Shown one piece after another: positions 28,233-61,933 of a stretch of DNA of 64,000 bases. The notes beneath the pieces are model-generated. The model saw only the letters and a list, made by a program, of their open reading frames with translations. It was not told the DNA's origin and did not search any database. The translations under genes were made by a program, and so were the position numbers. Origin of the DNA: an uncultured delta proteobacterium (GTDB lineage Bacteria > Desulfobacterota > Syntrophorhabdia > Syntrophorhabdales > WCHB1-27). How positions within the stretch are numbered: position 1 is the stretch's first letter; each line of letters opens with the position of its first letter. The stretch spans positions 480,001 through 544,000 of the forward strand of contig CAWEPK010000008.1 in the NCBI GenBank assembly GCA_963810935.1. Reading direction: 5' to 3'.

Positions 28233-28250
28233 CCTTAACCCCTTATCTTT

Positions 28251-29642: not shown

Positions 29643-29650
29643 GTCCCACC

Positions 29651-32138: not shown

Positions 32139-32139
32139 C

Positions 32140-32613
32140 CTACCGCCCTGTCCTCTCACGGTCTGCCGCGTTTTCCACGGCCCGTATAATCTTCTCGTAA
32201 CCTGTGCACCGGCAGAGATTACCGGAGATCGCTCTGCGTATCTCGGCCCGAGTCGGCGAGGGGTTCTTTTCGAGGAGCGCCTTCGCCGACATGAGCATAC
32301 CGGGTGTGCAGAACCCGCACTGCACAGCGCCCTCCTCTATGAACGCCTGCTGGAGGCGGTCGAGTTCCTTTCCGGCCAGTCCCTCGATTGTTCTGACCTC
32401 GCGGCCGTCCACCGATGCGGCGAGAACGAGGCAGGCGTTTACCGGCCGCCCGTCAAGGAGGACCGTACACGCGCCGCATTCACCGATGCCACAGCCTACT
32501 TTTGTCCCCGTCAGGCGGAGCCGGTTTCTCAGGAGATCGGCCAGGACTTCGCCCGCCTCCGCGACCGTGCTGCAAGTCTTTCCGTTCAGGACAAAAGTTA
32601 TCTTACTTTTCAT
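32140..32613 (-). CDS. Xanthine dehydrogenase family 2Fe-2S subunit
   Basis: GCGIGECGACTV, QCGFCTPG and GNLCRCTGY motifs. Confidence 0.95.
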   Translation of the reverse strand: MKSKITFVLNGKTCSTVAEAGEVLADLLRNRLRLTGTKVGCGIGECGACTVLLDGRPVNACLVLAASVDGREVRTIEGLAGKELDRLQQAFIEEGAVQCGFCTPGMLMSAKALLEKNPSPTRAEIRRAISGNLCRCTGYEKIIRAVENAADRERTGR

Positions 32614-32657
32614 CCTCGACTATCCATCGCTTTACTCCCTAAGACTGCCGGGCCGTG

Positions 32658-34035
32658 TTATTCCAGGACCTTGCCGCGCGTCTCAGGCAGGAAATGGAGC
32701 ACGAACATGCCTCCCACGACGGAACACCCGACCACGATGAACGCGTTCGTAGTTCCCACGGAGGGCCAGAGGAGACTGCCGAAGACCAGCGATACGAGAA
32801 GGGCCAGGGTCAGGCGGGCGATCATCGAAGCGCAGCCGAATCCCGTCCCCCGCAGGTCCGTCGGGTAAGACTCCGAGATAAACGTATACAGCGTCGCGAT
32901 GACCGGCTCTGCCGTAAGGCCGTAAAGCATGATGGTTATCCGGGCATACCAGTCCAGGTTGAGCACTGTCGTGAAAATCACTATGAATACGGCGGCCGAG
33001 ATGGAGCTGACCATGAGAAATTTCTTACGGCCCATCGACATCGATAAGAAAACTGGAAATTATTATCCCTATGAAGCCCATGAAGGAGAGAATGCCGGCC
33101 GTCAGGAATGCCTTTTGATGCGTGTATCCTTCCTTTACGAGCACCGTGGGCAGCCACATCGTCACTCCGAAACGATGCAGGAAGATCACGATCACCACTA
33201 TCCACAAGCCTATCGTCATCTTCCAGTTGTACCTCAACACCTTGGCGAAGCGGGAGACAATGCTGTCTTTGACGACTGCCTCACTCGCCGAAGTCTGCAG
33301 CGTCCATTCCTCTACCTGTGCCCCCGTCCGCCTGATGAGCCACCTTATTACCGCGTCTGCCTCTTTGAGACGGCCCTTCCGGATAAGGAAAGAAGGCGAC
33401 TCCGGAAGGTAGAATATTACCCAGATCATCAGGAACGCCGGCACTATCATGAGCAGGAAGAGAAGGCGCCAGTTGTTGTAAGGCACGAGAAGGGTGGCCA
33501 CGATCGCGTTCACCGTAGCGCCGATTCCCCAGAAAACATCGAGCAGGTTAAGGGCCTTTCCCCGGACCCGCACGGGCATGAACTCCGCTACCATCGGATA
33601 GATCACGGGTACGGTGGCGCCGAGCCCGAGACCCACGATCAACCTCAGTATCAACAAACAATCGAACGATGGAGACAACGCGGAGACGAGGGAGAATAGG
33701 GAATACGTCAGAACGCAGCAAATGAACACGCGCTTGCGGCCGATGGCGTCCGCCAGGGAGCCTCCCACGACCGCACCGGCGGCCATGCCTATGAAAGTGA
33801 CCGTGCCGAAGAGACCTAGCTGGAGATTGCTCAAATGCCAGTATGGCTTGATCAGCGGCATTACAAATCCCACCAGCATAACATCCCAGGCATCGAACAT
33901 AAATGCCAGACCGGCAATGAAAAAGATCATTCCCTGAGTACGGACACGAAACGGTAAAGCTTGAATTGTCTCATCCGCGTTTCTCAAGCTCTCTCCCTTC
34001 AATCGATATGTGCGGACCGTGCCGGGCGTCTTCAT
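32658..34035 (-). pseudogene. MFS transporter (NiaP/aromatic-acid-symporter-like), frameshift near 33036
   Basis: FDAWD, LADAIGRKR, LPESP and ESYPTDLRGTG motifs. Removing one base near 33036 gives ...FLIDVMGRKKF... and a ~458-aa protein. Confidence 0.85.
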
Positions 34036-34351
34036 TCCTTCGTTGATCCGGCTGCAGGCTGGATAACCTGCCAAGTTCCAAAGTAATGCGCCCTCCTTCG
34101 TAGACGATTCCATTGCATCCGGCAGTTCCGTCTATCATATCTCGCAAGGAGGAAGCAGTTTCTATGTTTAGTTCATGCTGTCCGGCAAGTCAAGTACTTT
34201 TTCGAGTTTTTCCTTGCTGGCAACAGCGTCGTGAGGTATCATCAGTAGAACGAATCCTGTCGGATTGACCCGGGCGGTTAACAGATGTGAGCCATGGGGT
34301 CGCTTTCGGGATTATGTACAATCCGGTCAACCGGCCGTGCGGAGCTTGAGC

Positions 34352-41826: not shown

Positions 41827-43047
41827 TCAAAGTCTGCCTGTCCCAAAAAAAGCCGATGCAGCTTCCACCACCGCTTGTGCGAACCTGGCGTCTTCTAAAT
41901 TGGCATCCACCTCGACGATCTCTATTTCCTTCCTTAGCTTCTTTCTTAATGTCTTGCAGAAAACAGCGTCTCCTTCCGGGTCATAGGTCGGGCCGCCCGG
42001 CTTGTCTACCGAGGACCAGCCGCGCATAGGCACGAGCACCCGGACAGGCCCTTTCGACCTATTCAATTTGAGGGCGAACGCCTCCGCGATCCGCCTCAAT
42101 TCCTCAGGGCTTGCGCGCAGCCATACCCGGAGCTTGTCCAGCTCGTATCGCGGCCGTCCGTACAACATGCGGCGGGAGCGGGACGGCGTTACATGGTTCA
42201 CGCTGCACGTCGACACGATTTGGGGGATGCCGCGGGCCCCCGCCGACTCCAGCCTCCCGGGCCCGGCGTCCCGTGCGAAGCCGTAGAGGTTCTCGCCCAC
42301 GCCTCCCGTCGCCAGGTCTATCACGCCCCGGAACATCCCCGACGCAATCATCTCCTCCATGGCGCGGTCGCCGGCGCCGTTGGCATGGAACCCGACGACC
42401 TCGCAGCCCGCCTTCTCCAGGGCGGACCGGACGAAGCTCGCGCACCTTTCACAGGGGCTCATCGTCGTCATGGCTAAGGCATTGCCTGCACCGGCCCAGG
42501 TATCGGCAACGCGCCGGCACGGCATGGCGCGCACGGCGTACGCCGCCCTTTCGAGGACGCTGCGCACGGGGTTGGAAAGACCTGCTATCTCGACTACGGA
42601 GTTGAACAGTATAATATCGCTCGTTTTAGGGAAAAAGCCGGAAAGTCCGCGCATGGCTGCGACGGACGAGACCATAAGCTTCGGGAAGCCGAACGGAAGG
42701 GCCTGCATCACCGCCGCAATCATAGATGTCCCGGTATAGCCGCCTATGCCGGTGATACCTTCGATCTTCCTTTCAGCCATCAGCCTTGATGCGATGCGCG
42801 AAGCTCCGACGATCATCGTCTCCATGTTTGAGGCCATGTTTCCGGAGCCGTTCAACGCTTTAAGGCTGCGTCCGCCGGCCCGCGCCACCTCGCTTGCTGT
42901 GATGTCCGCCTTGAAAACCGGCTTTCCGCAGCGCGTGGACAGGTCCATCGACAGAGACTCCGAGCCGAGGGCCTTCAGTTCCCCGTGCAGGTAGAGCGCT
43001 TCGGCGCCCTTCGTATCCATCGTGGCGAGGAGCAGGACAGACTTCAT
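41827..43047 (-). CDS. Tm-1-like ATP-binding domain protein (UPF0261), copy 1
   Basis: ATMDTKGAE, LPFGFPKLMVS, FHANGAGDRAME, R LESAGARGIPQ and PMRGWSSVD motifs. Confidence 0.9.
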   Translation of the reverse strand: MKSVLLLATMDTKGAEALYLHGELKALGSESLSMDLSTRCGKPVFKADITASEVARAGGRSLKALNGSGNMASNMETMIVGASRIASRLMAERKIEGITGIGGYTGTSMIAAVMQALPFGFPKLMVSSVAAMRGLSGFFPKTSDIILFNSVVEIAGLSNPVRSVLERAAYAVRAMPCRRVADTWAGAGNALAMTTMSPCERCASFVRSALEKAGCEVVGFHANGAGDRAMEEMIASGMFRGVIDLATGGVGENLYGFARDAGPGRLESAGARGIPQIVSTCSVNHVTPSRSRRMLYGRPRYELDKLRVWLRASPEELRRIAEAFALKLNRSKGPVRVLVPMRGWSSVDKPGGPTYDPEGDAVFCKTLRKKLRKEIEIVEVDANLEDARFAQAVVEAASAFFGTGRL

Positions 43048-43668
43048 ATTTGTACGTACTTCCATGAGACGGATGCCTTCCGTATCTTCCCTATGGGGAG
43101 GTCGGCGAAGTGGCCCCTGTCACGTAGATACTCGACGTTCGGCCTCCCGTCATCCGTGAAGGAAGGCAGCATGGCGTCGTCCTCTCCGTTGAACGGGACC
43201 GGGGTCACGCGCACCTTACGGCAGTAAGCGTTGTCGTAAGTGGGGGTCGCCTTGACCCATCGGCCGTCTATGTACAGGTCGGCCAGGCCGTGATACGCGA
43301 ATACGTTGCTCCCTCTCTTCAGAACAAGCTCCGGGGGCGTCAGGTGCGCGCGTATCTCCGCGAACCTGAGCCTCGCGGGTATGCCCGCGCAGCGCGCCAG
43401 AGCGGTCAGCAGGACCGCCTTCTGGACGCAGTAGCCTTCTCCGGCTGCAAGCACGCGGCTTGCCTTGAAGTGGGAATCGGTGGGCCTCTGCGCATAGACG
43501 TTATACCTGATCCCGTCCCTCACGAACAAGAAGAGGCGGACGGCCTTTTCCTTCGCGCTGCTGAGGCCGGTCGTCAGGCTCATCGGTCCTCCGGCAGACG
43601 TCCGGGTGGCCGCAATCGATAAAAAAGGTCGGCCGCAGGTAACGCTCTCTGCCTGTAAGTCTGCTCAA
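43044..43668 (-). pseudogene. Transglutaminase-like domain protein, frameshift near 43585
   Basis: YLRPTFFIDCGHP in one frame joins FVRDGIRY..GYCVQKAVLL..YHG..WVKATP in the next frame on removal of one base. Confidence 0.78.
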
Positions 43669-44033
43669 TCCTCCACCAGCGTAAGGGCGTTCGGGGCGCA
43701 CCACTGCACGCACTGCGGGTTAGGCGGCTCTCCGCAGAAGTCGCACTTGAGCGGGATGCCCGTGTCGGGTTCCTTATAGACCGATTTCGACGGGCACGAG
43801 GCCCGGCAAATGACGCAGCCGTCCACCTCGACGCCCTCCAGCATGCGGACGCCTTCCGAATTACAGGCGGCCTCCGTGTACGGGCCCGCGATGACGGGCA
43901 GGCAGAACTCCTCGCCCACGAATACCCTGATGCGCGACCGCCACGGGTTGACGGCCCCCGTGTGGGCCAGCGAACAGGCGATCTCGCACTGCTTGCAGCC
44001 GGTGCATACCTTATGGTCTATCTTTATCTTCAT
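43665..44033 (-). CDS. 4Fe-4S ferredoxin-like subunit, BamC-like
   Basis: CTGCKQCEIAC, AGPYTEAAC, CVICRASCPS and EPDTGIPLKCDFC..P.CVQWC follow the pattern I recall for BamC. Confidence 0.85.
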   Translation of the reverse strand: MKIKIDHKVCTGCKQCEIACSLAHTGAVNPWRSRIRVFVGEEFCLPVIAGPYTEAACNSEGVRMLEGVEVDGCVICRASCPSKSVYKEPDTGIPLKCDFCGEPPNPQCVQWCAPNALTLVED

Positions 44034-45847
44034 TCCGGGTCCGATCCTTCTTTGTCCAGCCCGATTTTATGGAGCTTCTCTTTGGTGGGCGCGCCTTTTT
44101 CGTCCCATTCCCTCAACCGGTAGTATTCGACGAGCAGCTTATCAAGCTCCACGACCCGGTTCTTCACGCGGGGCTCTTTGAGTATCCTCGGCGGCAGGGA
44201 GTCATCCTCGCCCGTGAGGCCTGCCCTCATATTGAAAAGGCGCTCGAGATTCCAAATCTTCTCTCCTAGCCTGTTGACCCCGTCCTGCGTGTATGCGGTG
44301 CCGGTCACGTACGTCAGCCACTCGGCGAGCTTCTCGCCCCAGAGCGGGCCATGGTAGACGATCCAGCAGAGTATCCCCGAATCGGCGGCCGCTATATAAT
44401 CCTGGTCCTTCTTCGTAAACTCTACAAAGCGGGCGGGGTCTTTCCGTCCCTCGTAGAACGGCATGGTCGATTTCGTGTGCGCGCCTCCCGTATTGGAGGT
44501 GGCGTACTGCAAGCCGAGCGCGTCGAACGCCTGCGGGTGCCAGGCCGGTATGCCCATGCCCTTAACGCCCATGAATAACTCCGGGTGGCCGTATCGCCCG
44601 GCAAAAGCCAGCCCGCCTTCCGCCATGAGGTCGCCGATCCCCTCCCTGTGGGCTATCTGCTTGAGCAGTTGGAACATGTTCGTGCTTCCGAATTCGAGCG
44701 GGTAGCCGAGGTCTTTTTCGGGCAGGTGGCCCTCCTCGAAAAGCTCCATGGCGCAGGAGACCATCGCCCCCGTCGTGATCGTATCCATGCCGAGCTCGTT
44801 GCACAGGTAATTGGCCCTGCAGATGTCCTCCATCTGCCCGAGACCGCAGTTCGCCCCCATAAGGGCCATCGTCTCATGCTCCGGCCCTTTTGCCGTCAAC
44901 GGGTATTCCGGGTCCTTGATGCGGCTCCTTTTCCCGCATGAGAAGGGGCAGGAGAAGCAGGCCTCGTCGCGCACCCGGATCAGGTCCCTGATCACCTCGG
45001 GGTCCTCATACTTCACGAAATCTTCGGAGTATCCCGATTTGAAATTGAACGCCGCCTGGCTCTTGCTTGCGTTCGCCCGGCCGGGCAGCGACCAGGTGCC
45101 GTATCTCCTACGCTTGTAGAATTCGCCGTTCTCGCGGGCTTCCTTGTAAAACTCCATGACCGCCTTCCGGAAGCCCTCCACGTCGGCGATGTTGACCGGT
45201 CCGGTCCCCAGGGCGGCCACCGCTTTGAGGTTCTTCGACCCCATGACCGCCCCCAGGCCCGAGCGTCCGGCGGCCCGCCCGCCGTCCGACATGATGCACG
45301 CGAACCTCACCATGTTCTCGCCGGCCGGGCCTATGTCGGCTACGCCCATGCTGTTGAGCGCCCAGTTATCGAAGCCGTATCTCTTTCTCATGTCTTCCCG
45401 GATCGTCTTTTCCGTATCCGCGGAGAGTTTGCCCCACAGGTGACCGGCCGGCAATATCTCCACCCGCTCGTTATTGATCGTCACGTAAACGGGCTCGGGC
45501 GACCTGCCCTCGAAGATAAGGAGGTCGTAGCCGGAATATTTCAGGTTCGATCCGAAATAGCCGCCGCAGCACGGACTCGACACGCAGTTGCTTAAGGGCG
45601 ACTTGGCGGAGACGATAAAGCGGCTTGCCGCCGGGGCCCCGCTTCCTGTCAGGGGGCCGGTGGAAAAGATAAGCTTGTTCGCCGGGCTTAAGGCGTCGAT
45701 CGCGGGGTCCACCTCATCGAAGAGTATCCTGCCGCACATGCCTCTGCCGCCGATGTAGTCGCTCATCAGGTAGGCCGGCAGCTCTTCTGTGCGGACTGTT
45801 GCCGCGGACAGGTCGATCCTCAGTATCTTCCCGTGCCACCCGAACAT
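44030..45847 (-). CDS. Aldehyde:ferredoxin oxidoreductase family tungsten enzyme
   Basis: GRSGLGAVMGSKNLKAV, CFSCPFSC, GPEHET, LGMDTIT, GGAH and ERLFNMRAG...DDSLP motifs. Confidence 0.93.
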   Translation of the reverse strand: MFGWHGKILRIDLSAATVRTEELPAYLMSDYIGGRGMCGRILFDEVDPAIDALSPANKLIFSTGPLTGSGAPAASRFIVSAKSPLSNCVSSPCCGGYFGSNLKYSGYDLLIFEGRSPEPVYVTINNERVEILPAGHLWGKLSADTEKTIREDMRKRYGFDNWALNSMGVADIGPAGENMVRFACIMSDGGRAAGRSGLGAVMGSKNLKAVAALGTGPVNIADVEGFRKAVMEFYKEARENGEFYKRRRYGTWSLPGRANASKSQAAFNFKSGYSEDFVKYEDPEVIRDLIRVRDEACFSCPFSCGKRSRIKDPEYPLTAKGPEHETMALMGANCGLGQMEDICRANYLCNELGMDTITTGAMVSCAMELFEEGHLPEKDLGYPLEFGSTNMFQLLKQIAHREGIGDLMAEGGLAFAGRYGHPELFMGVKGMGIPAWHPQAFDALGLQYATSNTGGAHTKSTMPFYEGRKDPARFVEFTKKDQDYIAAADSGILCWIVYHGPLWGEKLAEWLTYVTGTAYTQDGVNRLGEKIWNLERLFNMRAGLTGEDDSLPPRILKEPRVKNRVVELDKLLVEYYRLREWDEKGAPTKEKLHKIGLDKEGSDPE

Positions 45848-45848
45848 A

Positions 45849-46286
45849 TCAACCCCCGCCTGGACGGCCTGAATGCGTCTCTGCGTCCCGGAACGGACCG
45901 AGCGCCCTCACCGACTCCGTCATGCCGTTGACGATGCCCGCGAAGCGCAGCCCTTCCGATGCCGACACCCAGTCGAGCCGCACCCTCTCATCCTCTACCC
46001 CGAACTGCTCGAGCACCCTTTTCAGGAGCGCCATCCTGACGGCCGTCTTGTAGTTCCCTTCCAGGTAGTGGCATTCTCCCGGATGGCACCCGAGCACGAG
46101 CACCCCGTCGGCCCCGGCCTGAAGGGCTTCGAGGACAAAGGAAGGCTCGACCCTCCCGCTGCACATTACGCGGACGATCCTGATGTTCGGGGCGTACTGG
46201 GTCCTGGACGTGCCCGCCAGGTCGGCCCCTGCGTAGGAGCACCAGTTACAACTGAAAACGAGTATCTTCGGCTCGAACTGCTTCAC
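45849..46286 (-). CDS. mvhD: MvhD/FlxD-type 2Fe-2S subunit
   Basis: GTG start. FSCNWCSYAGADLAG, VMCSGRV, GCHPGECHY and WVSASEG motifs; Cys rather than Sec. Confidence 0.92.
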   Translation of the reverse strand: MKQFEPKILVFSCNWCSYAGADLAGTSRTQYAPNIRIVRVMCSGRVEPSFVLEALQAGADGVLVLGCHPGECHYLEGNYKTAVRMALLKRVLEQFGVEDERVRLDWVSASEGLRFAGIVNGMTESVRALGPFRDAETHSGRPGGG

Positions 46287-46294
46287 CTGCTGCC

Positions 46295-49200
46295 TCACGC
46301 GTCGAAGGCGGCGTGGATCTCCGCCAGGATCTGTTCCGTGGTGAAATGTTTTCCCTTCATTGCTCCGCCGGGACAGGCGGCCACGCAGACGCCGCACCCC
46401 TTGCAGAGCGCCTGGTTGACGTAGGAAACGCCTTTTTCTTCATCCTTCCGCACGGCGTCGTAGGGACACACCGCCTCGCAAACGCGGCACCCGCTGCAGC
46501 GCGATTCGTCCACCTGCGCCACGGCGGCCTGTCCCTCTATGCTCCCGCGCGTCAATACGGCAAGCGATCTCGATGCGGCGGCCTCGGCCTGGGCGATGCT
46601 CTCGTCGATGAATTTGGGACTGTGAGCGGCGCCGCACATGAAGATGCCGTCCGTCGAGAAATCGACGGGGCGCAGCTTCATGTGGGCCTCAAGGAAAAAG
46701 CCGTCCTCGTTCAGCGGGACCTTGAGCATCTGCGAGAGCGCCCGGTTTGCATCCGGCGCGACGGTGGCCGCGGCCAGGCAGACGAGGCCCGCGTCGAGCT
46801 GTATCTTACGGCCGAGGACAGGCTCGGTCACTGTCACCCTCAGGAAAGACTTCCCCTCCTCTTCCACGGCCGCGATATCAGGAGGGTCCTCCGGCTGGTA
46901 GCGGATAAAGACCACCCCTTCGTCCGAGGCCTTCCTGTAATAATCCTCCTTGAACCCGTACGTCCTCATGTCACGGTAGAGGACGTAGATGTCCATGTCG
47001 GGTCTCAGTCCCTTCAGCTTCAGCGCATCCTTTACGGAGTGCGAGCAGCAGACGCGGCTGCAATAGGGCCTTTCGTCATTTCTCGACCCGACGCACTGGA
47101 TAAAAACGGCCGCTTCGGTCTCCTTCACGCGGCCGGCGTCTTTCTCGATCATCTCATCGAGCTCCAGGAGCGTGACGACCCTCGGGTCCCGGCCGTACAG
47201 GTATTCGCCGGGTCTATGCTCCCCCGCGCCCGATGCCACTATGGTAACGCCGTGCTCTACCTGCCTCGGCGTATCGCTCCCCGCCACGCCGATCTTCGAC
47301 GAGAAGTTGCCCACGTAGCCCGAATGCTCCAGCAGCTCCGCGCCCGTAACGACCTCGATCATCTCCGTTGCGCGGACCTCCGAGACGAGGCGGTCCACCA
47401 GCGCGGCCACGTTGCCCCCCTCCAGCGTCTCGGGTATCCTCGCCGCCAATCCTCCCAGCTCGTCATTCTTTTCGATCAGGTGGACCTTGATGCCCTGGCG
47501 CGCCAGGGCCAGGCCCGCGGTCATACCGGCGACCCCGCCGCCGACAACCAGCGCCGCCTTCGTCACGCCGTATTCCGCCCGGTAAAGAGGCTGGAGTAGC
47601 AGGGCCCTTGCGGCGGCCATCCTGACGAGGTCCTTCGCCTTGCCAGTCGCGACCGCCTTGTCGCCCATATGGACGAAGGAGCAGTGCTCCCGGATATTGG
47701 CGAACTGGAAAAGGAAGGGGTTGAGACCGGCCTCTCTCAACGTGTCCTGAAAGACCGGCTCGTGGGTCCTGGGCGTGCATGCGGCCACTACGACCCTGTT
47801 GAGTCCCTCTTTCTTTATGGCCTCCACGATGTGCCTTACCGAATCGACCGAGCACGCGAAAGTCTCCTCAACGGCGCACGCTACGCCGGGAAGGTCCTTC
47901 GCGTATTCCACGACTTGCGGGACGCTCACGACCTTCGCGATATTTGTCCCGCAGTCGCATACGAATATGCCTATCCGCGGCTGCTCGCCGCCTACCTCGC
48001 GCTCCGCCGGGTAGACCTTTTCCGCGACCATTGTATGCCGCGCCTCGAAAAGGAGCCTGCGAGGCGAGAGACGCGGCCCCGCTCGCCATGGTGACGGTGT
48101 CCGGGATATCCATCGGGGCGTGGAAAACGCCGCAGGAAAAGATCCCCTTTCTCGATGTCTCCATGGGTGAAAAGTCGGGACTGCGGCAGAAGCCGTGGTC
48201 GTTCAGCTCTATTGCCAGGTTGCCGGCCAGGTCGCGGTTGCCTGCAGAAGGCGCCAGGCCTACGGAAAGGACAACGAGGTCGAACTCCTCATCCCTGACC
48301 CCGCTGCCGTTGACGCGGTACCTGAGCACTACGTTGCCGCTTTCGGCCCCCTCCCCCTTGATAGACGCCTTGGCCCATATGTAGCGCACGCCGGCCATCG
48401 CTTTGGCACGTTCGTAGAAGCGCTCGAAACCCTTGCCGTAGGCGCGGACATCGTTATGGAGGATAACGGCCTCCATCTCCGGATGGTGCTCTTTCGACAG
48501 TATGAGCTGCTTCGTGGCGTACATGCAGCATACGGCGGAGCAGTACGTACAACTCGAGCTTTCGTCACGTGAGCCGACGCACTGTATCCAGGCAATCCTG
48601 TGCGGAACACGGCCGTCGGACGGGCGGCGCAGCTCTCCCCCGTTGGGGCCCGATGCGCTGATCATCCGCTCAAACTCCAGGCTGGTTACGACATTCGGGA
48701 GCCGGTGGTACGCGTACCGGCTCTCCGCCGTGGGATCGAACGTATCGTATCCCGGCGCGAGGACCAGGCACCCGACACGTGCGGTCGTCCTTTTGGGCTG
48801 CATCCTGAAGTCTATGGCCTTGCCCTTACACGTCGGCACGCAGATCTGGCATATCTTCCTTTTCAGGAAAAGGCAATTCCCCGCGTCTATAACGGACACT
48901 GCCGGAACGGCCTGCGGGAAATGCACGTGGATGCACTTCTTTCTCGCCAGTTTTTCGTTGTACGTGTCCGGGACGTAGACGGGGCAGTATTCGGCGCAGG
49001 TGCCGCAGCCCGTGCATTTCTCCTCGTCCACGTAACGCGGCTCCTCGACAAGGCGGACCTCGAAATTCCCCGCCTCTCCCTCTACCCCTTCCACGCGGGT
49101 ATTGGTAAGGATCGTGATATTGGGGTTGGTCGCGCACTCGATAAACTTGGGGGAGAGGATGCACATGGAGCAGTCGTTGGTCGGGAAGGTCTTGTCGAGC

Positions 49201-49364
49201 TGTGACATCTTGCCCCCGATGGCGGGGGACTTATCGACAAGGTAGACCCTGAACCCGGAAGCTGCGGCGTCGAGGGCGGCCTGGATGCCGCCGACGCCCG
49301 CGCCCACGACCATCATCGCCCCGACCTTATCGGAGCGCCCGGGACTTTCAGGCACCGGACTCAT
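46295..49364 (-). pseudogene. hdrA: HdrA-like (BamE-like) double-FAD-domain flavoprotein, frameshift near 48056
   Basis: GGKMSQLDKTFPTNDCSMC, two IQCVGSR..YCS.VCC units and ferredoxin motifs. Removing one base at 48056-48057 gives ~1022 aa (..ASQLLFEARHTMVAEK..). Confidence 0.88.
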
Positions 49365-50530
49365 ATCACCTCGCCCACGATCTCCGAGATATCCCTGACC
49401 TCCAGCACGTCCCCCCTTTTCATCGTAAGGACGCTGTCCTTTAAGTTCAGGATGCAGTAAGGGCAGGCCGTAACGATGACTTCGGCTCCCAGGCTTATTG
49501 CCTGCTCGACGAGCGTATCGGAAAAGCGCTCTCCCTTTTTCGTCTCCATCCATATCCTCGCGCCGCCGCCGCCGCAGCACAGGCTGTTCTCCCTGGCATT
49601 CACCTCATCGATCAGCGTGAGGCCGGGAATGGCGGAAAGGACTTTGCGCGGCTCGTCGTAGACGCCGTTGTGGCGCCCCAGGTAGCAGGGATCGTGGTAG
49701 ACGACCCTCTTCGGAAAGGGCCTTTCGAATAAAAGGCGTCCTGCGTCGACCAGACCGGCCAGGTACTGGACGATGTGGACCACTTTGAAATCCGCGCCAA
49801 GCCGGGGATATTCGTTTTTGAACGTCTCGTAGCAGTGGGGCGAGCTGACGATAATCTCGCCGATCCCCGACGCGCGGAACGCCTTTATGTTGGCCGCCGC
49901 GAGGCTGTCGAAAAGCGCGTAGTTCCCCGCCTTCCGCACGCTCTCGCCGCAGCAGTTCTCATCGCTGCCGAGGAGCGCGAAGGCCGCGCCGGTCTGCTTC
50001 AGTATCCCGGCCGTCCGTCGGGCCAGATTCATCATCTTTGTGTCGAAGGCGGGCACGCAGCATGAGAAATAGGCCGTTGTCGCCCCGCCGCCGGGGGCAG
50101 GCAAGTCGAGGCCCGCCGCCCAGTCGGCCCGTTCCTGCCTCGCGCCGCCCCAGGGGTTTCCCGCGCTCTTCAGGCTCGCCATCGCGCTCCTGAGGCTCGC
50201 AGGGACCGCCCTGGCGACGCTCTCCACCGTGATATTGCGGACTGCGCGTATGACGTCCGTTATTGCGACGCCGCGCGGGCAGCGGCTCACGCACGCGTTG
50301 CAGGTTGAGCAGAGCCACCAGTCTTCCTCGCCGGGCTCCACCAGCCCGAACTTAGACTCCGTGATCTTCCTGTGGGGCGTGAAGGTCCGCACGTCGTTCC
50401 AGGGACAGCTCGCCGTGCAGAGGCCGCACTGGAAGCAGTTGCGGAACGCCTCCCCGCCGGCCTCCCTGATCATCTCTATCGCTTCTTTGAAGGGCGCCGT
50501 CGCTTCCGCTGCGGGTTTTTCCCTGCTCAT
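49361..50530 (-). CDS. HdrC/HdrD-like Fe-S protein with two CCG domains, BamD-like
   Basis: CFQCGLCTASCP, CSTCNACVSRCP, ENCCGE, YHDPCYLGRHN, CCGGGG and TACPYC motifs. Confidence 0.9.
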   Translation of the reverse strand: MSREKPAAEATAPFKEAIEMIREAGGEAFRNCFQCGLCTASCPWNDVRTFTPHRKITESKFGLVEPGEEDWWLCSTCNACVSRCPRGVAITDVIRAVRNITVESVARAVPASLRSAMASLKSAGNPWGGARQERADWAAGLDLPAPGGGATTAYFSCCVPAFDTKMMNLARRTAGILKQTGAAFALLGSDENCCGESVRKAGNYALFDSLAAANIKAFRASGIGEIIVSSPHCYETFKNEYPRLGADFKVVHIVQYLAGLVDAGRLLFERPFPKRVVYHDPCYLGRHNGVYDEPRKVLSAIPGLTLIDEVNARENSLCCGGGGARIWMETKKGERFSDTLVEQAISLGAEVIVTACPYCILNLKDSVLTMKRGDVLEVRDISEIVGEVI

Positions 50531-51794
50531 TGGGCTTCCCGTCCGATCCCGCCCCCGCCCGCCATCACCTTGCAGAGCTTACCGCATATGGAATCCGCGA
50601 GCGCCGCGTCGTCCATCGAGCACCCCATCTCGATAATCTCTATTCCGTCCCGTACCTTCAGGTAGCGCTTGAGGCCGTCGATGAAAACCGCGTCCGTCTC
50701 CGGCTCGTAAAGCGGGCCGCCCTCAACGCTCAGGGAAGAAAAACCCTTCAACGGGATGTAGACGAACGTGGGGCCTTTAGCCATGTTCAGCTTTTCGGCG
50801 AACACGCGCGCGATCTCTTCCATCTCGCGCCCTGTCGTCCGGGCCTGGACGCGCATCTCGTCCTGCACGTACAGCTTGCGCTTTTCTATCTCTTTCTCTC
50901 TCCAGAGGGGATCGCTCAGTCTGCGCGTGTAAGGCCCGCAGCTCAGCGCGTCGAACCCGCACGGCGTGAGTATTACGGGAATCCCCCTGCCGACTCCACG
51001 TCGAGCCTGTCGAGGCCCGCCGCGCGGTTGCCCCCCAGCATGGCCTCCGACAGGCCGGCCGGCACGAGGTCTATGACTGCGTCGAAAGCGCCGTCGCCTA
51101 TCATCTCTTCCATGATCCGGTCGCCCACTCCCTGCGCATGGAACGGGATCAATTCGAAGTCCTGCGAGGCGCATTGCGTGCGTACCATTCGGGCGCAGGC
51201 CTCCGAGAAGGCAAACTCGCTTATCGCCACCTGCTTTTTCGGATCGCCCCCGGAGAGCCGTTCCACGCCGGCCACACCGGCGATCATGCCTGCGAACCTG
51301 GCGAGCAGGTCCTTCACGAACCTGTTCAGGCCGTTGATGTCGAGGCATGAATGGAAGATCGCCATGTCCTTATATGCGAAGTAGCGGGCCGCGTAGGCGG
51401 GCATGGCGGCGGAGCTGGAGAGGATGAGCTTGGGAAAGCCGAAAGGCAGGGTCCTCATTACGGAGGAGATAAAAAGCGTATTGGTCGCCCCGCCGAAGCC
51501 GGCAATCGCGTCTATAGCCTTCTCTTTATAAAGCTTCCCGGCGATCTCGATACAGCCCGCCATCATCGGCCCGGTGATCGTCGCCGTGCCTTTGCTGGTG
51601 GATATCTCGTGAAAATCGGCGCCGCCCGAGCGGGCGACCTCGACGCACGTATAGTCGGCCCCCTCCCGGCTGTGCGCCCGCATCGCTATGTCGAGGAGGA
51701 TGACCTTGCAGCCGAGGGCTTCCAGCCGCCCTTTCAGGTAAAAGGCCTCTTCCCCCCTTGTATCGAGGGCCGTCAGCAACAGGACTGCGGACAT
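50527..51794 (-). pseudogene. Tm-1-like protein (UPF0261), copy 2, frameshift near 50990
   Basis: MSAVLLLTALDTRGEE, LPFGFPKLILS and FHAQGVGDRIME continue in another frame as GIPVILTPCG..PLKGFSSLS. Confidence 0.82.
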
Positions 51795-51831
51795 GCGCTT
51801 CCCTCTTCGTCTTGCGGGTATCGTCCGGTCT

Positions 51832-52496
51832 CTATAACCCCGGCCCCGAGTCAGCCCCTTGATCAGATAGGGCATCTCGACCCTCCTGGTAGGGGCGAGT
51901 ATCCTGCTCTGATAGTCCGTCACGTATTTCGATTTGAGGGTCCGGGTAAGGCCCCGGTACTCGTCGGTGGCAGCCACTTTCGCGATAGCCTCTATCGTCT
52001 GGCTCGTCCCTTCCACGAGGATGAACGGACCGGAGCCTATCGCCACCTTCCACACGTTCGTCACCCTTATCCCCAACTTTTCCATCCTGGGGACGAACTC
52101 GTTGTCCAGAAAGGTCCTGTAGCCCTTTTCCATGCCCGGGAGGATATTGAAATACTGGTTGAATTTCCAGACGCCGACCTGTACCTCGTATCGCTTGGCG
52201 TCGGCTGTCCCGTACGAGCTGTACAGCCTGCTCGCATAATTCCTGATAAGGGGTGAAAGCCCTTCCATAAGCTCGCTATACCCTTTTGACGTTACCGCCT
52301 TCTGGACCACGCCGGGGTCGTTCGTCGTCGATACGGCGACAATGCGGGGACCGGCGCCGACCACGACGTAGAATGCTCCGATTATCCGCAGCCCCGTTTT
52401 TTCCATGGTCGGTATGTATTTGCCAAGGATGAAGTCTTCGTATTCCTTCTCCTTGTTCTCGACCACGTCCCAGTACGTTGCAAAAAGTATAGCCAT
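51832..52496 (-). CDS. Tandem dimeric alpha-beta barrel (NIPSNAP-like) hypothetical protein; 3' end uncertain
   Basis: Two internal repeats (Y..F....(Y/F).P.MEK.G.R....(Y/W).V..G.GP). As sequenced it reads through in frame into Tm-1 copy 2. Confidence 0.6.
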
Positions 52497-52536: not shown

Positions 52537-53580
52537 CTACCTTCGGAAGAGCTGCAGCATAAGGTCGATCACGTATTGCTCGTCCTTTGCCGCCTCTTTT
52601 TTCGTATATTTCGCCCCCCTCGCCTGTACCCAGAAAATGTTCTCGGGAAAGGCAAAGCGCTTGTCGACTACCCATTCCATATCCTGCGGAGCACCGAAAT
52701 GCTCTTCGACTTGCTTGGCGACCCTCACGATCTCGAGTATCTCGGCGTCGTCTATGCACGGCGCCTGCCGGTGTTCCGGCGGCACGTCGCAGAAGACCGT
52801 CCCCTTCTCGCCGTAAACGACCATCTTCGTCTTCTGTCCTATGCTGCGGGACTCGACCGCCATCTCCTTCTTGTGCACGACGAATGAATCGGGCGTTATC
52901 TCCCCGCTGACCACGCTCTCGCCCAACCCGAAATTGCCCTCGACGATTGCCCGGTCCAGGTCCCCGACATTCGGCAGGACGGTCAGTATGACGCCCGCGG
53001 ACTTCGCCTCTATCATCATGATGACGGCGATGCCGATAGGCGCCCAGGAGACGGGCATCTTGTTGTTAAGCCGAAAGGCTATAGCCCTGGTCGTAAACGC
53101 GCTCCCCCATACCTTCTTTACGTGCTCGATGACCGCGTCCGTTCCCTGCACGTTGAGATAGCTCTCCATCTGACCGGGCATACTGACGGCCCCACTGGAA
53201 CGGACGGCGCAGGCCACGTCAGGCATCGCGACTTGTTCCTCCAGCCGCCTGTAATACATGTCGATCGACCGGCCGAGGTCGGGCGGCATGGACGCGCCTT
53301 CGATTACCTCGCGTATCCGCCCGCTTACCTCGATCAGCCGGTCAACGTCCCGGTCCATGTCTACTCCGCCGGCCAGCCTATCATCGACTATGCGGCCCAC
53401 CTCCCGGCCGAGGCCGGTGGCGTCCATGAAGTGCTCGTACGCCTTCACCGAAAGCGCAAACCCGTGCGGTACCCGCAGGCCCAGCTTTTTCATCTCGCCC
53501 AGGTTTGCGCACTTCTTGCCTACCAGGTCGTTGTATTCTTTCGAGAGCTCGTCCAGCCAGTAGATTTCCTTTGCTTCCAT
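52537..53580 (-). CDS. PEP-synthase ATP-binding domain protein, phenylphosphate synthase beta (PpsB)-like
   Basis: VGKKCANLGE, AVRSSGAVSMPGQMESYLNV, GLGESVVSG and PQDMEW..WVQAR motifs; stand-alone 347 aa. Confidence 0.88.
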   Translation of the reverse strand: MEAKEIYWLDELSKEYNDLVGKKCANLGEMKKLGLRVPHGFALSVKAYEHFMDATGLGREVGRIVDDRLAGGVDMDRDVDRLIEVSGRIREVIEGASMPPDLGRSIDMYYRRLEEQVAMPDVACAVRSSGAVSMPGQMESYLNVQGTDAVIEHVKKVWGSAFTTRAIAFRLNNKMPVSWAPIGIAVIMMIEAKSAGVILTVLPNVGDLDRAIVEGNFGLGESVVSGEITPDSFVVHKKEMAVESRSIGQKTKMVVYGEKGTVFCDVPPEHRQAPCIDDAEILEIVRVAKQVEEHFGAPQDMEWVVDKRFAFPENIFWVQARGAKYTKKEAAKDEQYVIDLMLQLFRR

Positions 53581-56118: not shown

Positions 56119-56982
56119 TCAGGCGACCTTCACCAGAAAATCCCCCCGGTCCAAGCCTGTCTGCCTGGCCAGGGGACGGCACTTGATTTTCAGCATGTAA
56201 ATCGCCTTCTTCCCCTGCGCCTCGCCCATCAGCGATTCATAGCTCCCGGTACCCTTGACGACGAGCAGGTCGCTCTCCAGGAAAGCCTGCTGCGCCCTCG
56301 TCTCTCCCTGTCCGGGCACGAAGACCTTGTCCGTCGTAACTACCTCGTCGACCGTATCTTCGAGGCCGAAGAAAGCGGCATCCTCGACGGTGGCGTCCTC
56401 GAAAAAGACGGGCTCCTTCACCACGAGCGTCACTCTCACGCCCATCTCCTTCATCATCCCGATGAGGAGCGAGTCGAAACCGATCTCGCCGGCGTTGTCC
56501 GTCACGTAAAAAACGCTTTGCGCCTCCCGGACCGCCTCGTACGGGTCTCCCACGACAACCGGGGGTGCGAGTCTCTCCTCGATGATGCCCGCCGCATCCG
56601 CGAAGGTGAAAGTCTCCGAGGGCCGGCCGATGGGCGCAATGTTGGCGGCCGCCGCGAGAAAACAGGCCCTTTCGAGCCTCTCCTTTGTCGTTTCTCCGTT
56701 CTTTATATACGCGCCTGCCGCATCGAGTAACTCCATCGCGCGGGCATCGGCGCCCTTCTTGAACTCATTCCAGAAATCGGGTGCCGGAGTCACGAATTCG
56801 TAGACAAGGGCAACTGCCCGGTTGCACAGACAGGCGAGGTTCGACGTGTCCGTTATCTCCTCCGAGACGAAGTCGATGACCTTCCGGAACAACCGGGGAC
56901 TGTCCCGGTCCCCGCTCCCAGCGGCGGCCCTTCCGTAAACCCAGCCAAGCAGGCAAACGCCGCATTCAAGCTCGGGCTTCAT
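56119..56982 (-). CDS. DUF89/ARMT1-like metal-dependent phosphatase
   Basis: N-terminal CxxC, DNAGEIGFD, EDAT and KGTGSYESL motifs. Confidence 0.8.
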   Translation of the reverse strand: MKPELECGVCLLGWVYGRAAAGSGDRDSPRLFRKVIDFVSEEITDTSNLACLCNRAVALVYEFVTPAPDFWNEFKKGADARAMELLDAAGAYIKNGETTKERLERACFLAAAANIAPIGRPSETFTFADAAGIIEERLAPPVVVGDPYEAVREAQSVFYVTDNAGEIGFDSLLIGMMKEMGVRVTLVVKEPVFFEDATVEDAAFFGLEDTVDEVVTTDKVFVPGQGETRAQQAFLESDLLVVKGTGSYESLMGEAQGKKAIYMLKIKCRPLARQTGLDRGDFLVKVA

Positions 56983-58724: not shown

Positions 58725-59135
58725 TCACCTGCTCGGGATAGGCCGCGGGCCCTGGCTCGGTATGGGCTGCGGTCCCGCTTTCGCGGCCGAGGGGGCCGTC
58801 ACAGGAGGGGCCTGGGGTTGCAGGCCGCCCGCGGAAGCCTCTTCAAGCGGCGGGTAGACCGGAGATTTTGAAAAAAGGAACTTTATTCCACGCATGATCA
58901 GGACCGGGTTTTTAAGGACCGTCCAGACCATATGCCTGAGGTCGCCTGGATCCACGAAGGCCCTGACCGTCCAATGGACGGGGTGTTGGATCTCCATGAC
59001 CATCAGCATGCGCATCGGCTCGGCCGCACCGTTTGCGGGCGGCTCCAGCGTCGAAGGCACCATCCCGGTAGTCTCAATCGCGGCTATCCGTCCGCGAAGC
59101 AGCGTCCTGCCCAACCCTGTAGATCGTATGAACAT
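58725..59135 (-). CDS. Small hypothetical protein between the two flavoproteins
   Basis: AGGAGG RBS, MFIRSTGLGRTLL start, Pro/Ala-rich tail, short gaps on both sides. Confidence 0.75.
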   Translation of the reverse strand: MFIRSTGLGRTLLRGRIAAIETTGMVPSTLEPPANGAAEPMRMLMVMEIQHPVHWTVRAFVDPGDLRHMVWTVLKNPVLIMRGIKFLFSKSPVYPPLEEASAGGLQPQAPPVTAPSAAKAGPQPIPSQGPRPIPSR

Positions 59136-59153: not shown

Positions 59154-60794
59154 TCAGAATAGTCCCAGGTCCCTGGCTTCTTTCACGCCCCTCGGCTCGG
59201 GCCACCACTTCTCTATGCCCAGGTCGTCCGCTATCCTTTCTGCCGCGTTGAAGCCGGGGCCGTACGTAATCATGCCGCCCGAGTGCGTGCATGCGCCCGC
59301 GAGATACAGCTTCCTGATCGGCGAATCGTGCTGGCTGCAATATTCGTTGGGCCTGAAGTAGCCCATCTGCAGCGGGAGATAGGCGCCCTGCTTGAAGCAG
59401 CCGTTCTTCATGTCCGGGAACTTGTTTTCCGTGTCGAGGGGCGTCCCGATGTAGTCCCACAATATGCTGTCGGAATTCATGTTCGGCGCGTATCTTTCGA
59501 GCATCTTCTTGCATTGCTCCGCGTAAGGCCGTCTCATTTTGTTCCACGCGAGAGCGCCGCCGTCCTTCAGCCTGTACGGCGCGCATTCCATGCTGATGAG
59601 GCCGACGTGCTTCACGACGCTTTCGGGCCGGCGGTGGACCCGGATGGGGTCGTGGATCGAAGGGAAGCAGCAGTTGAACCCGCCGTCGTGCAGCTCGCCC
59701 CGCTTCGACGCCTCGAAGTGGTCGATCAGGTCCTGCTCGCTTTCGTACCCGATCACGTAAATGAGGGATTCGGCCAGCTCGGGGTCGTTCTCTATGGCCT
59801 TGAACCGCGGCGCTTCGGTCAGGGCGAGATGGCACGTGAAGAAGCTCATCTCCGAGTATCGCCACTGGTCGAGCCTGGTGATAAGCTCCTGCTCCAGGTG
59901 TTGTTTGCCCACGTAATCATAGAACGTCTGGTGCGGGTTGAGTGCGCTGCAGACGAACTTGTTCGCCCTGATGACGGTGCCGTCGTCCAGCTCAACCCCC
60001 TTCGCCTCCCCGTTCTCGATGATGATCCTCTTTATGACGCAGCCGCTAATCACCCTGCTGCCGTTTTCCGATATATATTTTCCGAGGAGATGGGCCACGT
60101 GGTGAGACCCCATATGGCACAGGCGGAAGTGCCAGCCGCGGTTCATCATCAGGGGCACGAGGTATCCGAGGCCCTCCAGGTCGTAGTCAAGTCCCCACAT
60201 AGTGGCAAGATAAAGGAAGAGCGCGCGGACCCTGTCGTTCTCGAACCAGGCGTCGATGATCTGCCGGGGGGTGTATCCGGTCAGCTCGTCGTCCCATTTC
60301 GTCGCCGGGTGCCTTTCAAGCTTTGCGGCCTGCTCCAGACTCGGCAGCGGGTTCACATAGCTCGCCGGGGCAAGGAAGACATCCATCGCGTCGTCCGACC
60401 ATTTTACGAAGTTCCTGAAAGATTCCGCGTCGTTCGCGGAGAACTTGGCGATCGACTTCGCGGACCTCTCCGTGTCCCTGTAGAGGGCGAGATGGGTCCC
60501 GTCCTGAAAGGGCATCACCACCTGGACGTTGGGATAGATCCATTGCAGGTCGTACTTTGTCTCAAGCTCGAAGTCCCGCATCGGAGGGGCATATTCGACC
60601 ATCATGTGGTAGATCGCGTGGCTGTCCACGAGCATACCGGGAAGGAGCAGGTTCTCCGTCGCCAGGCCTCCCCCGATCTCGTACCGTCGCTCCAGGACCG
60701 CCACCTTCAGTCCCGCCTTGGCGAGATAGCCGGCGGTAGTCAGCCCGTTCGGACCCGCACCGATCACGATACCGTCAAACTCCAGTTCCCTCAT
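59154..60794 (-). CDS. FAD-dependent oxidoreductase, phytoene-desaturase/PYROXD2-like (copy A)
   Basis: IGAGPNGL, LERRYEIGGG, YAPNM, TPLD and LYLAGACTHSGG motifs. Confidence 0.88.
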   Translation of the reverse strand: MRELEFDGIVIGAGPNGLTTAGYLAKAGLKVAVLERRYEIGGGLATENLLLPGMLVDSHAIYHMMVEYAPPMRDFELETKYDLQWIYPNVQVVMPFQDGTHLALYRDTERSAKSIAKFSANDAESFRNFVKWSDDAMDVFLAPASYVNPLPSLEQAAKLERHPATKWDDELTGYTPRQIIDAWFENDRVRALFLYLATMWGLDYDLEGLGYLVPLMMNRGWHFRLCHMGSHHVAHLLGKYISENGSRVISGCVIKRIIIENGEAKGVELDDGTVIRANKFVCSALNPHQTFYDYVGKQHLEQELITRLDQWRYSEMSFFTCHLALTEAPRFKAIENDPELAESLIYVIGYESEQDLIDHFEASKRGELHDGGFNCCFPSIHDPIRVHRRPESVVKHVGLISMECAPYRLKDGGALAWNKMRRPYAEQCKKMLERYAPNMNSDSILWDYIGTPLDTENKFPDMKNGCFKQGAYLPLQMGYFRPNEYCSQHDSPIRKLYLAGACTHSGGMITYGPGFNAAERIADDLGIEKWWPEPRGVKEARDLGLF

Positions 60795-60979: not shown

Positions 60980-61933
60980 ATGAACATAAATCTGAACCAA
61001 CTCAAGGCTTTTTACCTCGTTGCAAAGAACGGAACCTTCTCCAAAGCTGCCGATGAATTGTTCGTTACCGAGCCTGCGGTTTTCGTCCAGGTGCGCACGC
61101 TTGAGCGGTGCCTCGGGCTGAAGCTCCTCGATAAATTCGGAAAGGACCTGCGGCTTACGGAGATCGGGAGGCTGCTTTACGGGTACGCCGGCAGGATTTT
61201 CAGCATAGTCGATGAGGCCGAAACGGCGATAAAGGACATCGGGGCGCTCAATAAGGGGGAGCTGAGGGTTGGGACCACAAGCACCCTTGCCGAATATCTG
61301 CTGCCCCTCATACTCCCCGCTTTCAGCGCAAGCCACACGAAGGTCCAGGTGTACCTCGAAGAGACGAACTCCGGCCAACTGGTGAAAGGCGTCCTTGCGC
61401 ACCAGTATGAAATGGCTATCGTGGCAAGGGTAGCCTACCCCGACACTATCGAATACACGACGCTGAGCAGAGATGAAATCCTTCTCGTCGCCTCGCCGGA
61501 CGACAGCCTCGCACAGAAGCAGCGGTGCTCGCTCAAGGAGCTGAACGGTTACCCGATGATATGCCGCGACGTGAAATCTGCGACGAGGCAAGCGGTATGG
61601 AAAGAGTTCGTGAAGAGAGACATCAAGCCCTCCGCTGTCATAGAGGCAGCCAATACGGAGTTGATCAAGAGGCTCGTGGCGAGCGGCAGGGGCGTCTCTC
61701 TCCTTTCGGAGGTATGCGTCAAGAAAGAGATAGAGCGCGGCGAGCTGGCCGCCATACCCATTGCTGAAGGGCCTTTCTTCCTCGATATCGACGCGATCTA
61801 TCTGAGGGGCAGGACGTTATCGCCCGCGGCGGCTTCCTTCCTCAGCTTTCTCCTTAAAACAGGCACATCGGAAAACCTGAACCACTTCGTGGGGGTTATG
61901 AAGGGTAGGAAACCCCTGGTCGCTTTATCCTGA
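60980..61933 (+). CDS. LysR family transcriptional regulator
   Basis: N-terminal HTH (FSKAADELFVTEPAV..LE..LG.KL) plus substrate-binding domain; divergent from the operon. Confidence 0.95.
   Translation: MNINLNQLKAFYLVAKNGTFSKAADELFVTEPAVFVQVRTLERCLGLKLLDKFGKDLRLTEIGRLLYGYAGRIFSIVDEAETAIKDIGALNKGELRVGTTSTLAEYLLPLILPAFSASHTKVQVYLEETNSGQLVKGVLAHQYEMAIVARVAYPDTIEYTTLSRDEILLVASPDDSLAQKQRCSLKELNGYPMICRDVKSATRQAVWKEFVKRDIKPSAVIEAANTELIKRLVASGRGVSLLSEVCVKKEIERGELAAIPIAEGPFFLDIDAIYLRGRTLSPAAASFLSFLLKTGTSENLNHFVGVMKGRKPLVALS

Follow-up and report, generated by a model that had tools for sequence, protein, structure and literature searches.

A tungsten subunit outside the BamB clade is encoded with sisters of BamD and BamE in a Syntrophorhabdales bacterium

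We analysed a window of 64,000 nucleotides (positions 480,001 to 544,000 of contig CAWEPK010000008.1; G000:C8:480001-544000) from a 4.06 Mb genome, assembled in 21 contigs, of a member of the Syntrophorhabdales, a group that, like Syntrophorhabdus, lives by the syntrophic degradation of aromatic compounds. One minus-strand block of five genes in this window encodes a CCG-domain protein, an HdrA, an MvhD, a tungsten (W) subunit of the aldehyde oxidoreductase (AOR) family and a ferredoxin. We found that a W subunit outside the BamB clade stands here on an electron-transfer chassis whose CCG protein and HdrA have BamD and BamE of class II benzoyl-CoA reductase (BCR II) as their closest sampled relatives. 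This was the central proposal of a first-pass annotation of the same DNA, whose five-gene layout and quoted motifs we also recovered in the translations. The W subunit did not fall inside the BamB clade with the Cys ligand aligned, nor did the D and E subunits cluster with generic Hdr/Flx proteins, the two outcomes named in the annotation as overturning the proposal. The block reads as follows, lengths being in amino acids (aa).

49361..50530, minus strand: CCG/HdrD-type Fe-S protein, 389 aa, with two Pfam CCG domains and Fer4; BamD sister
46295..49364, minus strand: fused two-FAD HdrA, 1022 aa when read through; BamE sister; split at 48056
45849..46286, minus strand: short MvhD adaptor, 145 aa, PF02662; hydrogenase-cassette type
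45847..45849, no strand: empty cassette site, where relatives hold flxCBA or mvhG-mvhA-protease (about 2.9 kb)
44030..45847, minus strand: AOR-family tungsten subunit, 605 aa, PF02730 and PF01314; distinct clade
43665..44033, minus strand: short BamC-type three-cluster ferredoxin (WorS), 122 aa, without the BamC C-terminal tail

The annotation had described a two-FAD HdrA of about 1020 aa. No such open reading frame exists in the window, where an extra single base at 48056 breaks the frame, and a protein of 1022 aa with both FAD motifs results once this is corrected. The base is missing from the contigs of all three independent soil DNA runs covering it (X1-X3), and hdrA is unbroken in relatives; in-frame forms were likewise found in independent-run contigs at 43577 (two runs), 50993 and 62708, and further assembly indels lie near 51827-51849. 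Because both the independent contigs and the relatives are in frame, the HdrA split and the other frameshifts are assembly errors, and a pseudogene reading is ruled out by the contigs of runs X1-X3. Small indels also split mvhA on contig C16, a second bamB on C8 (bamB-2) and aor on C3, and gene calling on this genome yields false pseudogenes from its many small assembly indels. An RNA run (X5) mapped to the stretch only as short, mostly divergent pieces and gave no evidence of expression.

To collect relatives, 401 genomes of the phylum were searched with two queries, the ferredoxin (matches in 144 genomes) and the first HdrA domain (matches in 291); 80 of the matching regions were examined, and the sampling is biased in that loci were gathered by similarity to the window proteins. 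The W clade occurred at 117 loci, reduced to 81 distinct ones, of which 49 are large (at least 12 kb), near-duplicates having been removed ahead of trees and locus counts. The HdrA tree was built carefully, whereas those of the W subunit, CCG protein and MvhD were built quickly, without bootstrap; the ferredoxin tree is also a quick one, and its deep forks are tentative.

In the HdrA tree (78 rows, first FAD domain, contexts without a W gene included), the clade of the window protein (15 rows, 100/100) was sister to BamE (36 rows, 100/100) with support 100/97 and was placed outside the BamE clade itself, while the fused HdrAs of HdrABC and Mvh contexts fell outside this grouping. Marker residues of BamE and BamD are named in the BCR II cryo-EM preprint (bioRxiv 10.64898/2026.04.10.717634), and its residue numbers map exactly onto BamE and BamD of the sampled loci. 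Every one of the 56 distinct HdrA segments in which the motif was readable carried the equivalent of the bifurcating Lys280, and 54/54 had the CxxC motif, always as Cys; the position of BamE Gln768 is His in the window HdrA. The CCG clade was sister to BamD (54-row quick tree, support 99), L036 alone among its members branching just outside, and the window protein, like BamD an HdrBC-like fusion, is 48% identical to the genome's own BamD. Equivalents of His230, Trp325 and Tyr356, which plug the heterodisulfide site, were kept in 18, 17 and 16 of 18 rows, and the Ser of a disrupted D4 cluster in 18/18. The BamD-like assignment made in the first pass is borne out by these data, and the plugged site argues that the CCG subunit is not a heterodisulfide reductase; it is predicted to be the high-potential terminal, on which electron-transferring flavoprotein (ETF) would dock. 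The annotated MvhD is present but is no BamF, lacking the BamF extension of more than 100 residues and nesting among the MvhDs of mvhDGA operons (quick-tree support 100). Taken by their sequences, the D and E subunits are true sisters of BamD and BamE, the ferredoxin is a sibling of BamC, and the F-type adaptor and the input side are generic Mvh/Flx proteins.

The W subunit matched AOR 9mqx_D with 467 bits, 1aor_A with 453 bits and BamB (4z3w_A) with 202 bits, compared with 783 bits to 9mqx_D for a canonical AOR of a relative and 1115 bits to 4z3w_A for the genome's own BamB. That BamB and the AOR of locus L027, as canonical AOR proxy, stood in for the PDB references in the W tree, where the W clade (support 100) was separate from the BamB clade (100). 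It fell within a 19-row group (95), mostly of AOR-like subunits beside BamC-type ferredoxins, and grouped (97) with the proxies for canonical AOR, which is clade 87 of the published 92-clade tree of tungsten oxidoreductases, but on a long branch of its own. Forcing the W clade and BamB into sisterhood lowered the log-likelihood by 17.4 (approximately unbiased test, p-AU 0.0575), a difference that neither demonstrates nor rejects such a relationship; BamB may have derived from a subunit of this kind or may have been recruited. As the annotation had stated, the BamB active-site segment, in which we take a Cys to be the tungsten ligand, is missing and GPEHE stands in its place. Four residues (Thr243, Glu313, Tyr427 and His448) are given as conserved in aldehyde-oxidising tungsten oxidoreductases (WORs) in PMC13328260. 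Among 88 distinct full-length members of the W clade, Thr243 was kept in 88, Glu313 in 87 and His448 in 84, whereas Tyr427 was kept in none and is Trp in 87/88 (Trp436 in the window protein). Thr243 is always followed by Trp (Ala244 to Trp), Glu313 is preceded by His (Tyr312 to His), and AOR Asp338 is Asn; the four Cys ligands of the [4Fe-4S] cluster are retained, and Trp252, His324, Asn350, Trp436 and Gln439 are invariant pocket residues of the clade. The label "conventional AOR" given in the first pass fails on these substitutions, which point to an AOR-like enzyme with a rebuilt pocket. An AlphaFold model of the subunit (predicted local distance difference test, pLDDT, 77.7; predicted template-modelling score, pTM, 0.88) had a TM score of 0.89 to 9mqx_D and 0.78 to BamB.

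The best PDB match of the ferredoxin was BamC (4z3w_E, 110.6 bits; next 58.7), with which it shares the deletion of one cluster segment but not the C-terminal tail. In the quick tree, true BamC formed its own clade (96) and the window protein belonged to one of several short BamC-type lineages, so that it is BamC-type as first proposed, though not a BamC ortholog. Its gene lies directly 3' of the W gene in 78/79 loci. A model of the two proteins together, the structural check suggested with the annotation, scored 0.95 against 0.22 for the best control, with 98% contact agreement and partner pLDDT of 81-82; the mark used for such models is reached by 116/157 solved pairs and 2/215 mismatched pairs. 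The modelled pair shows a likeness to BamBC and AorAB, both already solved. All 26 loci with a long BamC adjoin bamB, while the 33 other loci with a short BamC-type ferredoxin hold a non-BamB W gene in 31 cases, hdrA in 23 and both in 22, with Flx, BamGH-like or HdrBC partners.

Several of these other loci have layouts of their own. In L118, L122, L127, L129, L131, L132 and L157, an AOR and a BamC-type ferredoxin are encoded with a CCG protein, a single-FAD hdrA, mvhD and flx; the displayed AORs (L118, L122, L127, L129, L132 and L157) have all four canonical residues intact, with Flx or partial Flx, and these loci form a second, independent AOR-Hdr/Flx system. Other W subunits beside short ferredoxins are without canonical AOR residues. 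L123, L128, L130, L161 and L162 carry two divergent AOR-family genes, each with its own short BamC-type ferredoxin, arranged around a fused hdrA that is followed by hdrC and hdrB, and in the displayed W subunits of L123 and L161 the catalytic Glu and His are no longer present. L124, L125 and L163-L166 combine an AOR-family gene without Glu313 with a short ferredoxin, fused hdrA, mvhD and genes like bamG and bamH; this layout resembles that of BCR II, its W subunit being non-BamB and its input of the HydABC type.

The organism also has a true BCR II operon on contig C12, in which bamC, D, E, F, G and H come after bamB. Further copies are a bamBC pair on C8 and a bamEFGH set on C1. Given its own C12 operon, the operon studied here is a paralogous system, separate from the organism's BCR. 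The C1 set (L065, G000:C1:1-6397) is a bamE-F-G-H run without bamBCD at a contig end, with bamG and bamH near-identical to those of C12, and could reflect either a true duplication or a fault of the assembly.

The third terminal of the chassis proved to be exchangeable. Directly upstream of the W gene, the 81 distinct loci carry a FlxCBA-like cassette (34), an MvhG-MvhA-protease cassette (12), MvhD only (6, including the window) or HdrA directly without MvhD (20), with a rearranged order in 3 and a contig end in 6; in most orthologous operons the cassette lies between mvhD and the W gene. The FlxCBA-like cassette consists of FrhB/Fer4, AsrA-like and AsrB-like FAD/NAD proteins, a combination that goes by the name Flx. 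Neither bamG nor bamH of the BamGHI input module was found in any of the 49 large loci, and a reading of the relatives' gap as bamGHI was wrong, the genes there being Flx or Mvh. The statement that the operon has no NADH module holds as far as bamGHI is concerned, both here and in the large loci, but the bare site reflects a lineage-specific loss, in this genome of mvhGA and the protease. Mapping the cassette labels took 2 changes, the minimum, on the 42-row MvhD tree, in which the MvhD-only group falls among MvhDs of the hydrogenase type (100), and 9 against a minimum of 3 on the 70-row W tree, which argues that MvhD and the cassette have been exchanged repeatedly as one block. Elsewhere the genome encodes mvhAG on C16 and C2, flxCBA on C7 and four etfA-like genes. 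The window has the conserved Lys and MvhD adaptor of an HdrA-type bifurcating complex, with the third terminal absent in cis and candidates for it in trans.

The best clue to function, overlooked in the first pass, is the catabolic cluster in which the operon lies, with a phenylphosphate-synthase-like dikinase, a short-chain dehydrogenase (SDR) and FAD oxidoreductases. Its remaining features are listed below.

41827..43065, minus strand: UPF0261 (Tm-1-like) protein, by Pfam
43044..43668, minus strand: transglutaminase-like protein, PF01841; assembly frameshift at 43577; present in 23/49 large loci
50527..51790, minus strand: second UPF0261 protein; assembly frameshift at 50993; start approximate
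51804..52496, minus strand: NIPSNAP-like protein; 3' end disturbed by indels and approximate; no Pfam match of its own, weak PF07978 in an ortholog
52537..53580, minus strand: dikinase ATP-binding subunit (PpsB-like), PF01326
53603..55288, minus strand: dikinase phosphohistidine/substrate subunit (PpsA/RPH-like), PF00391
55329..56081, minus strand: SDR, by Pfam
56119..56982, minus strand: ARMT1-like phosphatase, PF01937
57008..58693, minus strand: FAD oxidoreductase 2 (FAD2), CrtO/phytoene-desaturase-like fold family
58725..59135, minus strand: conserved 136-aa protein of no known family
59154..60794, minus strand: FAD oxidoreductase 1 (FAD1), same family as FAD2
60980..61933, plus strand: divergent LysR regulator

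Upstream of the operon, the cluster runs from the LysR gene through the two FAD oxidoreductases with the small gene between them, the ARMT1-like phosphatase, SDR, two-subunit dikinase and NIPSNAP-like protein to UPF0261. Across the 49 large loci, FAD2 recurs in 32, SDR in 29, the dikinase subunits in 27 and 25, HdrA in 46, and etfAB and a membrane CCG protein in 17 each; a PaaK-like ligase was seen in only 8. Among 55 occurrences of FAD2, duplicates included, the 5' neighbour was etfB in 25 and FAD1 with the small gene in 28. FAD2 neighbours either FAD1 with the 136-aa protein or EtfAB with the membrane CCG protein, the two sets excluding each other, which suggests that FAD1 replaces ETF as its redox partner. 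Searches of PDB, NCBIfam and Atlas for a substrate clue returned family names and nothing more specific for the dikinase and the FAD enzymes, and the benzene "Magic" cluster was rejected as a counterpart, the flavoproteins in the available parts of PMC13101534 and PMC13416013 being unrelated.

A dikinase ortholog (61-77%) occurs without any W-clade match above 43% in 16 genomes. Examination of 14 such W-less clusters revealed a molybdenum (Mo) aldehyde oxidoreductase in 5 (584 bits to 1dgj_A), a stand-alone AOR retaining all four canonical residues in 4 and neither in 5. In L273, the Mo gene lies between SDR and dikinase, the position held by the W/Hdr module in L113. An intact aldehyde oxidoreductase of these kinds was found in only 2/49 large W-clade loci, L036 holding only a remnant of the Mo gene.

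Three UPF0261 (Tm-1-like) genes flank the cluster (41827-43065, 50527-51790 and 61953-63141) and co-occur with the transglutaminase-like gene in relatives. Positions 27372-37180 of the window hold a UbiD-family gene, a xanthine-dehydrogenase-family set, a major facilitator superfamily transporter and a 971-aa Mo-enzyme, for which no synteny with the W/Hdr cluster was seen among relatives. Additional paralogous two-subunit dikinases (36-44% to the window's) lie in other clusters (L275, L284, L291 and L292), some with UPF0261 and FAD oxidoreductase genes; together they make up a wider, uncharacterised family of anaerobic pathways that begin with a phosphorylation.

We infer a single complex with ETF as partner, aldehyde chemistry and a direction of flow opposite to that of BCR II. 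In BCR II, the preprint (bioRxiv 2026.04.10.717634) places tungsten on the low-potential arm, BamD and its partner ETF on the high-potential arm and BamF in the middle. In the proposed arrangement, the W subunit, three-cluster ferredoxin, fused HdrA, BamD-like CCG protein and MvhD would form one soluble complex, whose tungsten site would oxidise an aldehyde from the co-encoded pathway, probably bulky, aromatic or phosphorylated. Low-potential electrons would pass from tungsten through the ferredoxin to HdrA, high-potential electrons from reduced ETF to the CCG subunit, and the HdrA flavin would confurcate them, sending the pair via MvhD to protons (with MvhAG) or NAD+ (with FlxCBA). This amounts to the BCR II wiring run in reverse, by which a syntroph could dispose of ETF electrons with no proton motive force spent; in this genome, an Mvh hydrogenase encoded elsewhere would most likely dock in trans. 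The mean of the aldehyde potential (-560 mV, from Table 1 of PMC9304861) and the ETF potential (+16 mV, from the same preprint) is -272 mV, close to NAD+ (-280 mV) and to H2 at 1-10 Pa (-266 to -296 mV by the Nernst equation), and confurcation would therefore run near equilibrium. Confurcation calls for precisely the two cassettes observed and agrees with the pattern of replacement in the W-less clusters. We judge that aldehyde oxidation with confurcation of aldehyde and ETF electrons by HdrA has about an even chance of being right.

Several observations weigh against it. Considering that Tyr427, named as conserved in aldehyde-oxidising WORs (PMC13328260), is kept in none of the 88 W subunits, canonical AOR chemistry is not assured, and the active-site loops of the W model are of too low confidence (pLDDT <50 at 437-469) for the pocket to be read from it. 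The sole characterised use of a BamDE-type chassis is reductive. The 20 loci without MvhD have no direct explanation in a three-terminal model, and the window FAD2 pairs with FAD1 in a cluster without etf genes. No replacement lay within the examined stretch of 5/14 W-less clusters. Stand-alone AORs also occur in 8 W-clade loci of all sizes and an intact 60% relative of the Mo enzyme is encoded in this genome (C7:292797), so that another enzyme could oxidise the aldehyde.

The strongest alternative, possible though in our view doubtful, is that the same complex runs forward as in BCR II, with low-potential electrons driving a hard reduction at tungsten. H2, NADH or ferredoxin would then be bifurcated, the high-potential electrons going to ETF or menaquinone, and the target would be reduction of an acid to an aldehyde, of a non-CoA ring, or reductive cleavage of an aryl phosphate made by the dikinase. 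The nearest characterised relative runs in this direction, the pocket is rebuilt around its five invariant residues, a separate AOR is retained in some loci, and genes for ETF and a membrane CCG oxidoreductase accompany the operon in 17/49 loci, among them many that have no MvhD and could draw on ferredoxin. However, with the bamGH booster in 0/49 loci, NADH or dilute H2 alone would barely reach -560 mV; clusters lacking the W/Hdr module (L274, L276-L278 and L280) can likewise encode ETF and the membrane protein, the pathway in the 16 genomes lacking this W clade implies a replaceable step, and the BamB active-site segment is absent. The particular version in which bifurcated low-potential electrons reductively cleave an aryl or enol phosphate, or dearomatise a non-CoA ring, at the rebuilt site seems unlikely; if true, it would be a second non-aldehyde tungsten chemistry, carried by an extant sister of the BCR II core, with H2 or NADH as plug-in inputs.

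Uncoupled aldehyde oxidation, with HdrA serving as a wire from tungsten to the CCG subunit and ETF or to partners of MvhD, is quite unlikely. Transfer of this kind, a short circuit from dienoyl-CoA through tungsten to ETF, is reported as measured in BCR II (bioRxiv 2026.04.10.717634), and HdrA directly precedes the W gene without MvhD in 20/81 loci, often with etfAB. A wire has no need of a 1022-aa two-flavin protein, though, and the bifurcating Lys and CxxC are kept throughout, with a complete third terminal retained in 46/81 loci. It is improbable that the block joins two mere neighbours, a class II WOR (W subunit and ferredoxin) and a separate cofactor-recycling Hdr/Mvh/Flx module: the W-ferredoxin pair does stand apart from, or ahead of, the Hdr genes in L234, L235 and L246, but the ferredoxin has the BamC three-cluster deletion, the form that docks on BamE, HdrA is present in 46/49 large loci, and 22/33 other short-ferredoxin loci have both a W gene and hdrA. 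Decay of the operon in this genome, suggested by the four frameshifts, the nearby indels and the lost cassette, is extremely improbable and already largely refuted, the independent DNA runs being in frame at those sites and the MvhD-only arrangement recurring at 6 distinct loci.

Compared with BCR II Bam(BC)2DEFGHI (Geobacter metallireducens, 4Z3W), the operon shares the fused two-FAD HdrA with bifurcating Lys and CxxC, the plugged BamD-type CCG protein, the three-cluster ferredoxin and an AOR-family W subunit. It differs in a W subunit outside the BamB clade, a short MvhD for BamF, the lack of BamGHI, an input that is Flx, MvhAG or none, and an HdrA CxxC without selenocysteine. Reportedly, MvhD with MvhAG or FlxCBA feeds HdrA in HdrABC-MvhAGD of methanogens and FlxABCD-HdrABC of Desulfovibrio. 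The adaptor and cassettes here are of that type, whereas the low-potential branch leads to a W enzyme rather than to free ferredoxin and the CCG protein is no heterodisulfide reductase. Canonical AORs (Pyrococcus furiosus 1AOR; Aromatoleum AorABC 8C0Z) have the same fold, Thr243, Glu313, His448 and Fe-S ligands, in contrast to which the W subunit here has Trp for Tyr427, about 40% identity and a small subunit with three clusters, not four. Class IV WOR1/WorABCSL (Acetomicrobium mobile, 9MQX; PMC13328260, PMC9304861) also joins an AOR-like W subunit to a bifurcating module, and 9MQX is the best sequence and fold match of our W subunit. Its module, however, is a HydABC/Bfu type working with ferredoxin and NAD, whereas here it is HdrA-type with tungsten on the low-potential branch. 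In the accessible text of PMC13328260, HydABC-like subunits define class IV and Hdr-like subunits are mentioned only for BCR; no HydABC-like WorABC subunits were found across the orthologous loci examined. As in phenylphosphate synthase (Thauera, Desulfatiglans; PMC6114531), the dikinase has separate ATP-binding and phosphohistidine subunits, but its partners are an SDR, FAD oxidoreductases, a phosphatase and an aldehyde oxidoreductase, and the conserved cluster showed no UbiD-type carboxylase. The searched literature, thin on subscription papers but taking in passages of PMC5109826, PMC13101534, PMC13416013, PMC10553843, PMC12054007 and PMC6114531, did not describe the gene set, nor was it mentioned in the examined supplements of PMC13328260, which probably exclude its large datasets.

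To our knowledge, BCR II has so far been the sole tungsten enzyme on an HdrA-type bifurcation module, although a 2021 study of HdrA modules by Appel et al. may list such clusters. The operon family described here indicates that the BamDE core has a sister serving a different tungsten enzyme, that, across the Desulfobacterota, ferredoxins of the BamC type connect several AOR-like enzymes with HdrA, and that a concrete outgroup is available for the assembly of BCR II. For the 1-MDa BCR II, coupled turnover could not be measured. Simpler test beds for HdrA bifurcation would be the variants of five to eight genes, which have one bifurcating flavin and a terminal of their own for H2 or NADH. If confurcation is the true direction, aldehyde oxidation would pay for a membrane-independent route by which syntrophs pass ETF electrons to H2 or NADH.

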